Shown here: positions 6,718 to 18,902 of the stretch, in pieces
Layout of the letters: the number at the start of each line of letters is the position of its first letter
Position numbering within the stretch: position 1 is the first letter of the stretch
Virus record (IMG/VR): IMGVR_UViG_2925597055_000005
Location: 46,712 to 66,711 of that record
Strand: one strand, 5' to 3'
Source: an uncultured virus (IMG/VR IMGVR_UViG_2925597055_000005)
Taxonomy: Duplodnaviria > Heunggongvirae > Uroviricota > Caudoviricetes
DNA: 20,000 bases
Translations under genes and position numbers: made by a program
The notes under the pieces: model-generated
What the model saw: the letters and a program-made list of their open reading frames with translations, nothing else
Databases searched by the model: none
What the model was told of the DNA's origin: nothing

Positions 6718-6822
6718 CGCCCTCGCAAAATGCCGGTGTCTGCGCCCGAAACGCCGCCAGCGCTTGGCAGTAGCGACGCGACACGGATTACCTAACGGCC
6801 GCCCCGACATTCTCCGAGGACG
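6718..6822 (-). ncRNA. candidate structured RNA in the ssb 5' leader
   Basis: Minus-strand arms CGUCCUCG-G-AGAAUGUCGG and CCGGCAUUUU-G-CGAGGGCG form 18 bp with three G-U pairs. Inner stems: UGUC/GACA, GCGUC/GGCGC, CUGCCA/UGGCGG. Confidence 0.5.
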
Positions 6823-6830
6823 CGACGCGC

Positions 6831-6929
6831 CTATGATGCGTCGTCTTCGCCACTTTGCGTCCACATGCCGAAAAGTATTAATCCGATGATGACGGCGGCA
6901 ATCGGTCCCACCCACGAAAGATCAGACAT
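6831..6929 (-). CDS. single-TM micropeptide (32 aa)
   Basis: MSDLSWVGPIAAVIIGLILFGMWTQSGEDDAS; ATG overlaps the end of the upstream gene. Confidence 0.55.
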   Translation of the reverse strand: MSDLSWVGPIAAVIIGLILFGMWTQSGEDDAS

Positions 6930-7679: not shown

Positions 7680-7778
7680 GCACTAGGCCGAGGACTTGTT
7701 CGCATAATTGTTCGCTTGAATTCGTTGACAATATGCAATACAATGAGGACGTAGCGAAAGTCCTTCGGGCCTAGCTGC
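7680..7778. repeat. long imperfect inverted repeat with a ~50-nt loop
   Basis: GCACTAGGCCGAGGACTTGTTCGC (7680-7703) is complementary, with bulges, to GCGAAAGTCCTTCGGGCCTAGCTGC (7754-7778). Confidence 0.75.
7716..7744 (+). promoter_or_regulatory. putative sigA promoter, antisense to the sigma-factor gene
   Basis: TTGAAT-N17-TACAAT. Confidence 0.5.
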
Positions 7779-7782
7779 GTGG

Positions 7783-8391
7783 TTATTGCGCGATCAAGTA
7801 GTCACGGTAATCACCGAACTGTTTGGTATCGAAATTGCGTGAGAGCTTTTCGAGTTTGCGTATGACTGTTGAGTGATGTAGACCCAACTTTTTTCCGATT
7901 GCCGTCGGAGTTGGCTTTTCACTCGAAAGATATGCTTCGGCGATTTGTATTGTCGTTGCGTCAGATGTAGTACCTAATAGGAAGTCGATCAGTTGCCGCT
8001 GGTCAACTTCTTTTTTTGTTGTCAAAAGTTCTTCCGGGGTTATCGTACAAGGGACCTCGAATGTTGCCGCATTCTTATGGTCTCCTTTTGGTATGATTTC
8101 TCTTTTGTTTCTGTTTACCCTCCCCCTTAAAAAATAGCGTCTCTGTAACGGAACACTTGCATTAAATAATCTTTCAAAATCATGCTCTCCGTTGTACGAC
8201 TCAATGCAAGAAAGTAAGGTATCTTCATAAATCGCTCTTGCCTCATAATAATCTGCACCAATTGATTTACCGATTGTTTTGAACTTTCGGTCATTTCTTG
8301 TTATGAAGTAATCGTAAACCATCCTAAAAGCAGATTCACTTCTACTTTCTTTGTACTTTAATACTTCGCTATTCAATTGTTCTTTTCTCAA
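7783..8391 (-). CDS. phage sigma-70-like transcription factor (region 2 plus region 4 HTH)
   Basis: ESAFRMVYDY...EARAIYEDTLLSCIESYN..DF..LF is region 2-like; TPTAIGKKLGLHHSTVIRKLEKL is an HTH. TTG start with AAGGGAGG RBS. Confidence 0.75.
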   Translation of the reverse strand: MRKEQLNSEVLKYKESRSESAFRMVYDYFITRNDRKFKTIGKSIGADYYEARAIYEDTLLSCIESYNGEHDFERLFNASVPLQRRYFLRGRVNRNKREIIPKGDHKNAATFEVPCTITPEELLTTKKEVDQRQLIDFLLGTTSDATTIQIAEAYLSSEKPTPTAIGKKLGLHHSTVIRKLEKLSRNFDTKQFGDYRDYLIAQ

Positions 8392-8411
8392 TTTTCCGTC
8401 CTCCCTTTTGC

Positions 8412-8450
8412 TTACATACGACTATATGCACCTACTTACACAACCGCGCA
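8412..8450 (-). promoter_or_regulatory. conserved motif copy 1, TGCGCGGT-N11-GTGCATAT-NN-TCG-NN-TGTAA
   Basis: 25/39 identity and identical spacing with 18864-18902; immediately upstream of the sigma gene RBS. Confidence 0.65.
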
Positions 8451-8588
8451 TTTTTTGTTTGTTTTTTCTCTATGTGTAAATAATACCAAGTATTTTCTGC
8501 AATTATCTGAAAACGACACCCTATTTATATAAAAATAAGTAGCGCGGATACGGCCTAAGTATCGTGTTCCGTAGAAGCTTAGAAAATT

Positions 8589-8619
8589 AAAAAACCCCAC
8601 AACATTACGTTGTGGGGTT
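8589..8619 (-). terminator. intrinsic terminator after aimP
   Basis: Perfect 11-bp stem AACCCCACAAC/GTTGTGGGGTT with a 5-nt loop and a U-tract on the minus strand. Confidence 0.85.
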
Positions 8620-8628
8620 AATAAAGAA

Positions 8629-8760
8629 CTAAGCGCCAACCCGAATGTCGGCTACCTTATATCCTCCTTCGGTGCTAGCTTGATTCTGTGTATCATATTT
8701 AAATGCAAATCCTGCTGCCGCCATCACTACGATTAAAGTGGCTAATAATATCTTTTTCAA
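8629..8760 (-). CDS. aimP: arbitrium pro-peptide AimP; predicted mature peptide DIRVGA
   Basis: TTG start with AAAGGAGAGG RBS; MKKILLATLIVVMAAAGFAFKYDTQNQASTEGGYKVA-DIRVGA. Signal peptide, then linker, VA and a C-terminal hexapeptide ending in GA, the same layout as phi3T AimP (..VA-SAIRGA). Confidence 0.9.
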   Translation of the reverse strand: MKKILLATLIVVMAAAGFAFKYDTQNQASTEGGYKVADIRVGA

Positions 8761-9925
8761 TTAAAACCTCTCCTTTAATTAATTTTTTGAATTTTAGGAA
8801 TGGTCTAAGCGCTCGTGAGTCAGCTCCTGCTTTCTCAAGCTCTTTCGCTACTAACCTAGCAAAAAAGAAGTTTTCTTGACAGAAAAAAGACTCTAGGCAA
8901 TTATACATTACATCTATTGACTTTTCCGCTGTGTTTTCGAAAAATATTATAAAATTGTCTTTATCGCCCCTCTCTAATATCGTATGTAACTTCGCTAAAG
9001 AAATTTTCCCATTTCTCGCTTTCTGATATGCTCTCAGTCTGAAGTTAGAGTCTTCATCAAGCTCGACACCATGAAAGACTTTAGCGAAATCTAAATTAAA
9101 CTTTGCCTCTTGGATATACTGCAAATCGCCCACTTCACGCATTAACTCGTAACTTTTCCGGAGATTATACAAACAGACATTTTTATCATCCGGTAAGTAC
9201 GACATCCCTATAACATAATATGCATCAGATTTCTTTTTCGCGGATATATTTGCATTAATAATGGATTCAGCAAAATCCCGAGCAGATTTTACATCATTAA
9301 GTTGCAAACTAATAGGCGCCAATAATTCACAGACCCTGAACGTTAAGCATTCTTTATAAAAGGTTTCTCGCGGCCCTAGGTTTGTTATATCCTTCTGGAT
9401 TTCCGAGACTTCATTTATTATTTTTTGTATGTCACCTTCAAAATAGTTGTTATACTGTCGAATGATATTCATTAAGATCAAAAGTGGTTTACTTGTTATA
9501 TTGTGGAGTCTTCCAATTGCATCCTTCAGTTCAAAACCACTCAACGTTCCTACCATATAGTTATAAACAATACGGTACACTTCCACCGTCTGTTTAAGCA
9601 CTCCGTCAGTATTTTGATGAAGTAGTAATAATCTTTTTAAAAGGGGAGCGTTTGTAGTAATTGCGGAGTATTCAAATGAGTTTTTTATTGTTTCTGTCCG
9701 GGTGATGTGCAAACACCATTCTGACAAAATTTCCTGGCTTCCCTTTCCTGTTTCTCTTGAAATCAGTTGAGCAAATTTAATAAGTTTCTTGAAACTTATT
9801 TTACCTTTCTTGAAAAAATCCCTATATGCACTTTCACTCATTCCAACAAACTCCATAACATCCGTCTTTTTTATGGCATCGTGGTCTTCAATAAAATCAT
9901 GCACCATTTTTGTGATGTATTCCAA
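8699..9925 (-). CDS. aimR: arbitrium receptor AimR (N-terminal HTH plus TPR-like)
   Basis: 408 aa, helical. AimR-like segments (WCLHITRTETIKNSFEYS, YYVIGMSYL, NLDFAKVF, FFARLVAKELEKAG) and position directly upstream of an AimP-like peptide gene. GGGAGG RBS, TTG start. Confidence 0.87.
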   Translation of the reverse strand: MEYITKMVHDFIEDHDAIKKTDVMEFVGMSESAYRDFFKKGKISFKKLIKFAQLISRETGKGSQEILSEWCLHITRTETIKNSFEYSAITTNAPLLKRLLLLHQNTDGVLKQTVEVYRIVYNYMVGTLSGFELKDAIGRLHNITSKPLLILMNIIRQYNNYFEGDIQKIINEVSEIQKDITNLGPRETFYKECLTFRVCELLAPISLQLNDVKSARDFAESIINANISAKKKSDAYYVIGMSYLPDDKNVCLYNLRKSYELMREVGDLQYIQEAKFNLDFAKVFHGVELDEDSNFRLRAYQKARNGKISLAKLHTILERGDKDNFIIFFENTAEKSIDVMYNCLESFFCQENFFFARLVAKELEKAGADSRALRPFLKFKKLIKGEVLIEKDIISHFNRSDGGSRICI

Positions 9926-9983: not shown

Positions 9984-10013
9984 ATTATAATTATTGCATT
10001 ATCGATATGTCAA
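9984..10013 (-). promoter_or_regulatory. sigA promoter for aimR
   Basis: Perfect TTGACA (10013-10008)-N18-TATAAT (9989-9984) on the minus strand. Confidence 0.75.
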
Positions 10014-10074
10014 TAATAATTTTCGGTAGTTTTTGTTAAAGTGATAATATAAAATATACTGGACACCTTTACGA

Positions 10075-10320
10075 ATGGAGGTGTTTATTACGTTTAAGGT
10101 CGGCAAATGTCGGATACCCGAACTATGCAAGAAACGTGGAATTAGTCTCAGTCAACTCGCAGCAATGGTCGGAGTATCAAAAACGCACATGTCCGATTAC
10201 GTCAGCCTTCGGAATCTGCCGAGCATCGAACGAACCTACAATATCGCGATGATGCTCGGCTGTGCGCCCGAAGAGCTGTACGAATGGATTGAGGTATCCG
10301 ACAGCAACACGGAGGGTTAA
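10075..10320 (+). CDS. XRE-family HTH transcriptional regulator (Cro/CI-like)
   Basis: IPELCKKRGISLSQLAAMVGVSKTHMSDY...PSIERTYNIAMMLGCAPEELY. The only credible plus-strand gene, divergent from aimR. From memory it resembles SPbeta YopS-type regulators. Start codon uncertain. Confidence 0.85.
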   Translation: MEVFITFKVGKCRIPELCKKRGISLSQLAAMVGVSKTHMSDYVSLRNLPSIERTYNIAMMLGCAPEELYEWIEVSDSNTEG

Positions 10321-10336
10321 TACAACCTCCGCCGAC

Positions 10337-11332
10337 CTAAAGTACGGGTATTCCCGAACCTAAACGTAAAGTATTTCTTACGACCTCCGCACGATCATAC
10401 ACGTCTCGCAACGCTTCTGTACCGCGCTTTATAAGTAGTTCATCAGCGTCTTTCACCTCCGTAATATAACCGTGCGCAAGCCGCACCTTTCCGATCAAAT
10501 AACGCTCAATCTCCCGCCGTAACTTTTCGCCAGCTTTGTCGTTATCTGTAACCACCGTTAAATATTCGATAGGTGACTGCGCAATTATGTCCGCCTTCTG
10601 TAAATTAAATGTGCTGCCACCGGTTCCGATCGCCGGTATGCCCGCAGACCGCCACGCCATGGCATCGATCTCGGCCTCGCATATCACCGCACTTTTAATC
10701 CGCTGCGCATATACGAGATCCATTCCGTAAACTAAATACCGGATAGGCATGCCGCCTTTTACGTACCAGAACGCCTTTCCCTTCGTTGCCCTGTACTTAA
10801 CGTTAGCCAGCCGCCCGTTAGGAAGCCGCCAAGGAATCGCGACTGCATTTCCGGCAAGCGATACGCTGGCCTCTTCTTGTACCGCGCCTGCAATGCCCCG
10901 GCCCGTCAGGTAAGCGTTAGGCCCCGACATTGTGTCCGCGAGGACCGATTCCGCTAAAGGCTCCGGCTTCGTGACGGCCTTTAATTTCGGAAGCCGCAGC
11001 GCCATACGCCCGCCTTCAGCCGCCGGTGCATACGTTTCCAATAAGTACTCGATTGCGTCGTCTTCGGTTTCGCCACGCAGGAAAGCGAGCAGTTTAACGA
11101 ACCCGCCCCGCGCAAACTCTTCGTCATAGGCGCCCGAGTCGCCCCAATAGCCGGCCTTTGCCGACGCTGTGTCTTCGAGGTAAACGTAAAAGCTCGGCGT
11201 CCGATCGTATCTGAATGGACTGGCGGCCAACAGACGTTCATCGCCCCACGTCGGCCGGGTCCAATCGAATTGTTCGAGTTCATACCGAATGTCAACGTCT
11301 ACAAAACGTCCATTCAAAGTTAATATCGGCAA
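10337..11332 (-). CDS. DNA primase (TOPRIM)
   Basis: ANVKYR, VICEAEIDAM, TDNDKAG and KDADELL motifs. The N-terminal region (SPFRYDRTPSF) looks like a degenerate zinc-binding domain. Confidence 0.9.
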   Translation of the reverse strand: MPILTLNGRFVDVDIRYELEQFDWTRPTWGDERLLAASPFRYDRTPSFYVYLEDTASAKAGYWGDSGAYDEEFARGGFVKLLAFLRGETEDDAIEYLLETYAPAAEGGRMALRLPKLKAVTKPEPLAESVLADTMSGPNAYLTGRGIAGAVQEEASVSLAGNAVAIPWRLPNGRLANVKYRATKGKAFWYVKGGMPIRYLVYGMDLVYAQRIKSAVICEAEIDAMAWRSAGIPAIGTGGSTFNLQKADIIAQSPIEYLTVVTDNDKAGEKLRREIERYLIGKVRLAHGYITEVKDADELLIKRGTEALRDVYDRAEVVRNTLRLGSGIPVL

Positions 11333-18863: not shown

Positions 18864-18902
18864 TTACAACCGATAATATGCACGCCAAATTAATACCGCG
18901 CA
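18864..18902 (-). promoter_or_regulatory. conserved motif copy 2, TGCGCGGT-N11-GTGCATAT-NN-TCG-NN-TGTAA
   Basis: Matches 8412-8450; lies right after the integrase terminator, at the head of the replication operon. Confidence 0.65.

Follow-up and report, generated by a model that had tools for sequence, protein, structure and literature searches.

Among the closest described systems to the locus analyzed here are the arbitrium modules of SPbeta and phi3T, in which the receptor AimR recognizes an operator built as a 6-25-6 inverted repeat (PMC6458997). Three mechanisms have been described for the output element aimX: an RNA, a mimic of the MazF antitoxin, and an antirepressor (10.1101/2025.11.23.689978). 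The same preprint, by Kabel and colleagues, assigns about 75% of systems to an extended module and about 4% to an SPbeta-like type and leaves a "generic RP" class; the word "sigma" is absent from its main text as available (10.1101/2025.11.23.689978). Separately, phage-encoded sigma factors are known from SPO1, whose middle and late sigmas are used in the phage programme (PMC9429907), and Xpf of PBSX has been termed sigma-like (PMC4243946). Among the titles and abstract openings listed, a set without Stokar-Avihail et al. (2019) and the Kabel supplements, none places a sigma factor under arbitrium control. Such wiring is likewise not described in the available parts of 10.1101/2021.09.20.460909, PMC13220667, 10.1101/2025.10.13.681967, PMC13748020, PMC13389391, PMC9429907, PMC9476937, PMC5135824, PMC4243946, PMC13064462, and PMC8612738.

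We analyzed a 20-kb stretch of DNA (the window), which is the final 20 kb of a 66.7-kb provirus record. Family scans place in it an integrase gene along with those for helicase loader, DnaB-like helicase, and primase, as well as ssb and polA; to judge by the order and sequence of the ORFs rather than by family scans, the structural genes seem to be located in another part of the record. On the minus strand, aimR is followed by aimP, an intrinsic terminator, a 237-nt noncoding spacer, and a gene for a 202-aa sigma-like protein. As in SPbeta and phi3T (clade 2), an intrinsic terminator follows aimR-aimP; across the family it precedes a long-spacer inverted repeat, which is degenerate in the window. 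Whereas the output of those phages is a MazF-binding peptide or an RNA, reached through antitermination, the output slot of the window holds the sigma-like gene and an extended -10 element. We conclude that this is a real and conserved variant of arbitrium and that a self-amplifying phage sigma factor is most likely its output. The elements of its core are as follows.

9984..10013, minus strand: aimR promoter, consensus sigma-A (12/12, 18-nt spacer), from a promoter scan of the sequence and presumably active
8699..9925, minus strand: aimR, receptor of 408 aa (PF22871, NF038310)
8629..8760, minus strand: aimP, propeptide of 43 aa with C-terminal ADIRVGA (NF033802)
8583..8619, minus strand: intrinsic terminator after aimP, an 11-bp perfect hairpin plus T-run (hairpin search)
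8512..8549, no strand assigned: position of the family's AimR-type inverted repeat, degenerate in the window (3/6 pairs)
8480..8488, minus strand: extended -10 (TG-n-TATTAT); the predicted host sigma-A promoter to which it belongs has a poor -35 (3/6)
7783..8391, minus strand: gene for a phage sigma-70-like factor of 202 aa, TTG start, GGGAGG RBS (fold prediction, weak TIGR02937)
Residues ~1-97 of that protein: predicted sigma2 domain (fold model)
Predicted helices 145-185 of that protein: sigma4-like helix-turn-helix domain (fold model)

The earlier note on this DNA had placed about 200 nt without a convincing ORF after the aimP terminator, then a co-oriented sigma-70-like gene in lieu of a canonical aimX. 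The spacer, at 237 nt, indeed contains no RBS-bearing ORF, its chance frames being broken by indels; the next gene is co-oriented and, weak by sequence (TIGR02937 below cut-off), has a predicted fold that matches sigma-70; and neither an AimX ORF nor an aimC-aimL pair follows aimP. A synteny survey of the kind that note suggested found the layout conserved across the phage family, with aimR upstream of sigma in 65 of the 76 loci fetched with the sigma alignment. The comparisons thus support this first reading of the aimR-aimP-sigma wiring at the level of sequence, and two features reach beyond it: a site inside aimR and an antisense RNA.

The remaining 11 loci comprise two without upstream sequence, eight from Paenibacillus, and L025. 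Conversely, sigma lies downstream of aimR in 38 of the 39 loci fetched by four AimR queries, mostly on the same contigs as the sigma-fetched set. Named homologs of the sigma-like gene are mostly from Bacillus. The gene also occurs without aimRP, in Mgbh1, L025, and the eight Paenibacillus loci; therefore, the adjacency of aimR and sigma is in part a matter of fixed gene order. In most of the aimR-less loci, an XRE gene lies directly divergent from the sigma gene. Relatives in runs X11 and X14 are about 95 to 98% identical on both flanks and carry a different cassette between 7779 and 10077, which ends like the sigma gene of KLEB27-1. Receptor, peptide, and sigma appear, from these sequences, to be exchanged between phages as one unit.

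The aimR product scores well above the cut-offs of both receptor profiles (PF22871, 92.6 bits versus 26.7; NF038310, 216.8 versus 70), and the gene overlaps the aimP start by 62 nt. The aimP product matches NF033802 at an E value of 6.6e-5 with 23 bits, under the cut-off of 35; its N terminus is basic and hydrophobic, as for a secreted propeptide, and its gene adjoins aimR. The mature peptide is likely DIRVGA. With a heuristic pick, the aimP slot is filled in 68 of 68 loci. Propeptides of six loci (L020, L021, L034, L045, L061, and L069) carry tandemly repeated C-terminal peptides, and the SDKVGG repeat in L020 and L061 supports a signal of six residues in that group. The receptor of the window is 37% identical to Wbeta-type receptors, and its best PDB match is distant (E of 1.8e-5). 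We built a tree from 26 sigma-linked AimRs, three Wbeta-type receptors, and that of SPbeta, leaving out L033, whose aimR is split. The sigma-linked receptors form two groups separated by a branch with 100/100 support, and the Wbeta types fall within the group of the window; hence, the layout is not a property of one receptor lineage.

By sequence alone, the sigma-like protein is a weak candidate: TIGR02937 matches it with an E value of 0.022 and 14.4 bits against a cut-off of 42.9, no sigma family in Pfam or PHROGs matches, and sequence searches of the PDB gave no significant sigma match. We found 118 homologs, of which 115 were aligned together with the window protein. Among these 116 family members (window protein included), 95 match TIGR02937 at an E value of 0.01 or lower, and just one matches Pfam Sigma70_r2; weak helix-turn-helix matches also occur in the homologs. 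The AlphaFold model (pLDDT 83, pTM 0.47) has two helical domains joined by a loose linker. When this model was compared with the PDB by Foldseek, the best 50 of 500 matches were all sigma-70-family chains, aligned full-length, with Bacillus subtilis SigH at the top (E of 8e-4). Several sigma2 domains align to the N-terminal domain (Z 8 to 9, rmsd 2.8 to 3.2, 86 to 92 residues), among them SigW (Z 9.0, rmsd 3.2, 91 residues) and RpoS region 2 (Z 8.7, rmsd 2.8, 90 residues); Z scores of 8 to 10 are middling for helical folds, and whole-chain TM-scores are about 0.3 to 0.4. Structure matches among named viral proteins are mostly sigma factors. The 202-aa protein is thus predicted to adopt a sigma-70 fold, and the promoter covariation described below lends indirect support to its use of core RNA polymerase.

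The spacer between aimP and sigma measures 160 to 282 nt in 66 of 68 loci. The other two have insertions: L039 and L049 carry about 500 and 2,200 nt, respectively, directly after the aimP terminator, and the latter insertion contains a 419-aa transposase-like ORF, with loss of the normal region upstream of sigma. All 27 nonredundant spacers retain the terminator, a count made without a shuffle control. A strong extended -10 is found in 19 of the 27, versus 3.9 in shuffles (maximum, 10), and the -35 matches consensus at no more than three of six positions in 25, so that the spacer promoter looks activator dependent. An unconstrained grid of inverted repeats peaks at the 6-24-6 arrangement placed 26 bp before the -10, with 3.22 pairs versus 2.85 for the best of 200 shuffles. 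At least five of six pairs form in 14 of the 27 spacers (shuffles, 3.2; maximum, 11), and the other 13 fall below five, including the window (3/6) and its closest divergent relative, L010 (4/6). Where the repeat is present, its gap to the -10 (24 to 28 allowed) is 26 nt in 13 of the 14 loci, while its distance from the terminator ranges from 8 to 47 nt; the -10 anchor is probably wrong in a few loci (L024, L057, and L062). Of the two routes that the earlier note had offered, a fixed distance to the -10 and a variable distance to the terminator fit activation better than antitermination. In the window, single-base indels in five near-identical relatives break the chance ORFs of the spacer. A hidden AimX ORF was considered and rejected: ORFs of at least 25 aa occur in 23 of 27 spacers and ORFs of at least 20 aa with an RBS-like word in 5 of 27, and none is shared. 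A LexA box was not found in the spacer; the consensus has a single match in the genome, inside the helicase gene.

A bipartite motif, TGCGCG-N16-CATAT(T/A)(A/G)T, occurs at four places in the genome of the window, the copy within aimR differing at one position.

8421..8450, minus strand: predicted phage-sigma promoter before the sigma gene, TGCGCG-N16-CATATAGT (motif)
9215..9244, minus strand: predicted phage-sigma promoter within aimR, TCCGCG-N16-CATATTAT, 484 nt before the aimP start (motif)
18873..18902, minus strand: predicted phage-sigma promoter after the integrase gene, in front of the operon that includes helicase loader, helicase, and primase (motif)
Genome position 40380: predicted phage-sigma promoter after nrdF (motif)

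When 21 genomes were queried with the site upstream of their own sigma gene, 58 further matches were recovered, compared with about 6 in block shuffles, and 20 of the 21 yielded one or more, generally in similar settings. The motif is nonpalindromic and has a spacer of 15 to 18 nt, and at most of its intergenic sites a start codon follows after about 45 to 140 nt; together, these properties amount to promoter geometry. No motif site stands ahead of the structural genes, the best score after the four training sites (25 to 30 bits) being 14. The motif was also weighed as a binding site for AimR and ruled out, since Mgbh1, which has no aimR, carries it four times. Similarity between motifs follows sigma identity (rho of 0.74) more closely than that of primase (0.39) or helicase (0.40). 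In a partial Mantel test on 20 genomes, a set without the window's own, the association with sigma remains at 0.71 (P = 0.0005), together with a residual link to primase (0.31; P = 0.024). Two pairs of genomes illustrate the point. G002 and 268TH002 share 98% identity in integrase and 92% in primase versus 30% in sigma, and the motif that follows the integrase gene is in each case the genome's own; similarly, G006 and KLEB27-1 share 90% in primase and helicase, have sigmas 22% identical, and carry their own motif before the same downstream gene. These comparisons suggest that motif variants track the sigma allele, not the neighboring genes. The site at 8421-8450 would give sigma positive autoregulation. 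The earlier proposal that sigma launches the replication genes holds insofar as predicted sites that track sigma precede replication operons; it is refined in that the genes for loader, helicase, and primase are located upstream of aimR, where a separate site at 18873-18902 serves them.

To assess the site within aimR, we compared the best internal match of each locus with 60 synonymous shuffles; L071 had no usable site. The match beats the shuffles (0.05 or better) in 19 of 26 nonredundant loci, and 7 fail, KLEB27-1 among them. The window is borderline, with 3 of 60 shuffles equally good. Moreover, the best match to any of the 26 motifs reaches 11/14 in the aimR gene of Wbeta and 10/14 in that of phiCM3, so the 11/14 of the window against its own site is weak by itself. 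The site usually lies 440 to 515 nt before aimP, with 268TH002 differing (132 nt), and the AimR residues encoded there change with the motif (for example, SDAYY, SDGYY, and SHMYH). No terminator-like site lies between the internal promoter and aimP in the window. If sigma drives aimP from this position, it would set up negative feedback through the peptide.

A further transcription unit is predicted on the opposite strand at the 3' end of the sigma gene, and an XRE gene diverges from aimR.

7716..7744, plus strand: sigma-A-type promoter that reads into the sigma gene from its 3' end
7751..8017, plus strand: predicted antisense RNA of about 265 nt with a 5' hairpin, complementary to the final ~225 nt of the sigma gene
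7987-8004, plus strand: antisense terminator, hairpin plus T-run
10075..10320, plus strand: xreA, divergent XRE/Cro-C1 gene, candidate repressor (family scan; covered in RNA run X17)

The antisense promoter is found in 28 of 36 loci versus 4.0 in shuffles, and the hairpin that follows it often has a GCCUA loop (26/35). A terminator-like site lies 170 to 262 nt within the sigma gene in 34 of 37 loci versus 4.8 in synonymous recodings, a range chosen after the hairpin positions were known. In RNA run X17, coverage of the 20 kb is confined to 7763-7989 and 10083-10309; the contigs are identical to the window where they align, and their extents match the predicted antisense RNA and xreA, although they come from one run and carry neither strand nor level. 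Raw-read run X23 gave no match, and runs X11, X13, X14, X16, and X21 hold relatives or scattered pieces that are uninformative on strand or level. The antisense unit and the own-sigma promoter occur in aimR-less loci too; in sequence, XRE, sigma, and antisense RNA look like an older core, with aimRP inserted before sigma. Inverted repeats flank the antisense promoter (7680-7780); in the sense transcript, they would pair into a long stem. In L001, L003, L010, and L017, a palindrome lies between the -35 and -10 of this promoter. Farther along, upstream of ssb, the noncoding stretch at 6740-6850 is GC rich and seemingly structured, with GCCTA-like words on the plus strand (by eye), and has no Rfam match; the Rfam search returned a single chance match (E of 0.46).

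The xreA gene has an RBS followed by ACG at 10090, where L022, L031, and aimR-less relatives have ATG; this ACG is probably the true start. The RBS is within a hairpin, and the 5' and 3' ends pair (10060-10380; fold z of -6.1). Start codon, RBS hairpin, and paired ends together suggest deliberately low translation. Most relatives have a second XRE gene. In loci of this kind (L001, L020, L027, L032, L037, L059, and others), an 18-bp palindrome, TGTTYAC-N4-GTRAACA, shares positions with both the left AimR box and the aimR promoter. When at least 12 of 14 positions had to match, 14 of 27 loci carried it upstream of aimR and 12 of 27 carried it in the spacer, counts made without a control; it is a candidate repressor operator. 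The window and L010 have neither the second XRE gene nor the palindrome.

Taken together, these features make it highly probable, going by the sequence, that AimR gates the sigma gene by some route. With somewhat less confidence, we propose that peptide-free AimR would activate the weak spacer promoter, after which sigma would transcribe itself, the replication operons, and aimP. Host polymerase would make AimR from the consensus promoter at 9984-10013. Peptide-free AimR would then bind the operator beside the -35 of the extended -10 promoter and activate it; the family anatomy is seen in the alignments, and the operator of the window is degenerate. The resulting sigma would read its own promoter and lock itself on, as the site and its covariation suggest, and would also read the sites after the integrase gene and after nrdF. 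From the promoter inside aimR, it would produce AimP in proportion to lytic activity, and the terminator would halt this transcript before the sigma gene. By analogy with known systems, imported AimP would inactivate AimR in newly infected cells and lysogens, so that the loop is not started. Host-driven antisense RNA, whose elements are seen, may set a threshold for sigma mRNA in the lysogen. The peptide signal would thus likely determine whether the phage kills or stays dormant, through induction of a transcription programme of the phage's own for DNA replication.

Other readings of the same anatomy were considered. AimR could act by antitermination: with peptide-free AimR bound, the aimP transcript begun inside aimR would continue past the terminator and on into the sigma gene, an arrangement that could also accompany activation. 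This is the demonstrated mechanism for clade 2 AimR (PMC10769878); the order of terminator and operator is the same in the window family as in phi3T and SPbeta, and the window has a predicted promoter upstream of aimP with no terminator-like site up to that gene. It also bears against activation that AimR of phi3T and SPbeta is an antiterminator and that phi3T has no promoter downstream of the site, according to the available text (PMC10769878). However, function was lost in phi3T when the site was shifted relative to the terminator by -8 or +69 bp (PMC10769878), whereas here this distance varies between 8 and 47 nt; L010 lacks a 27-nt block that the window has between terminator and operator position, and the conserved extended -10 would be left without an explanation. 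We consider antitermination unlikely, though worth keeping in view. A slightly less likely reading is that aimRP merely adjoins sigma. AimR would then act through a small RNA that is hidden, through a small ORF, or at operators far from here, and control of sigma would fall solely to the XRE repressor, the antisense RNA, and sigma's own promoter. The sigma gene, its own promoter, and the antisense unit do exist without aimRP, no clear operator is seen in the window, an AimX ORF can encode as few as 29 aa (Kabel preprint, 10.1101/2025.11.23.689978), and AimR of SPbeta binds further operators (PMC6458997). Yet no RBS-bearing small ORF is conserved, with frame-breaking indels in close relatives; the operator-like repeat sits at a fixed distance from a -10 aimed at the sigma gene; and aimR itself carries a promoter matched to the local sigma allele, which ties the modules together.

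Two readings that alter the role of one component are less probable again. The sigma-like protein may be a sigma-derived DNA-binding activator or an adjunct of sigma rather than a dissociable subunit, the motif being its binding site and the gene still being gated by AimR. Its scores below family cut-offs, the single Sigma70_r2 match among 116 members, and the pTM of 0.47 leave room for this, but sigma2-like and sigma4-like domains are both predicted, the motif has promoter geometry, and the same slot of KLEB27-1 holds an annotated, nonalignable sigma with its own motif; we regard this reading as very improbable. Finally, an operator abutting a -35 can block polymerase, and AimR might therefore repress the spacer promoter, in which case the peptide would promote lysis. 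The poor -35 in 25 of 27 loci, with its activator-dependent look, speaks against such inverted logic, as does the fact that the peptide favors lysogeny in the arbitrium systems compared, in their available descriptions; we give it hardly any weight.

Activation of the spacer promoter by peptide-free AimR is thus the reading we retain. In its fullest form, which we put forward tentatively, the locus would represent a fourth arbitrium output: AimR would be a classical activator of the sigma gene; sigma would form a switch that locks itself and would transcribe aimP as well, from a promoter inside the aimR coding sequence, so that receptor residues co-evolve with sigma specificity; the antisense RNA would set the threshold; and the receptor-peptide-sigma cassette would be swapped between phages as a unit. 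If true, the layout would explain part of the "generic RP" class through positive control by a sigma factor, and it would reopen whether AimR can be a true activator, a view overturned for clade 2. Direct tests are feasible in B. subtilis with the isolated phages 268TH002 and phi18-2, and the family is a source of small sigma-promoter pairs whose changes in specificity are readable.

Compared with SPbeta and phi3T, the 6-24-6 family repeat is close to their 6-25-6 operator (PMC6458997). In SPbeta-like systems, a sroA-F (yopM-R) type operon follows aimX and the peptide mostly ends in RGA, whereas the window has other downstream genes and a peptide ending in VGA. As in the extended module aimR-aimP-aimX-aimC-aimL (phi106, phiW23, and Wbeta), the output of AimR here would favor early lytic and replication genes. 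Unlike in that module, aimP of the window is followed neither by a small antirepressor ORF nor by a convergent aimC or aimL, the next gene being co-oriented and encoding 202 aa; its XRE gene lies upstream of aimR and is divergent; and control is likely positive, through a sigma factor, rather than by derepression. In PBSX, Xre represses the phage programme. The Xre-Xpf and SPO1 cascades resemble the window in that the sigma-like factor is encoded by the phage; no sequence family link between the sigma-like protein and the PBSX and SPO1 factors was found, and the available accounts of those phages describe no peptide gate, receptor-embedded sigma promoter, or antisense RNA. Likenesses in gene order come from the deposited temperate phages 268TH002, 268TH007, phi18-2, and vB_BauS_KLEB27-1 (KLEB27-1). 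Mgbh1 has no aimRP, and the sigma of KLEB27-1 is not alignable with the window family. The available text of the paper on the 268TH phages mentions neither arbitrium, aimR, nor sigma; the deposited annotation, which is annotation only, names an "AimR transcriptional regulator" (268TH002) and an "RNA polymerase sigma factor." Adjacent aimR and sigma matches are present in 268TH007 and phi18-2, and 268TH002 and KLEB27-1 share the order of the window: primase <- XRE, followed by aimR, (aimP), sigma, ssb, and polA.
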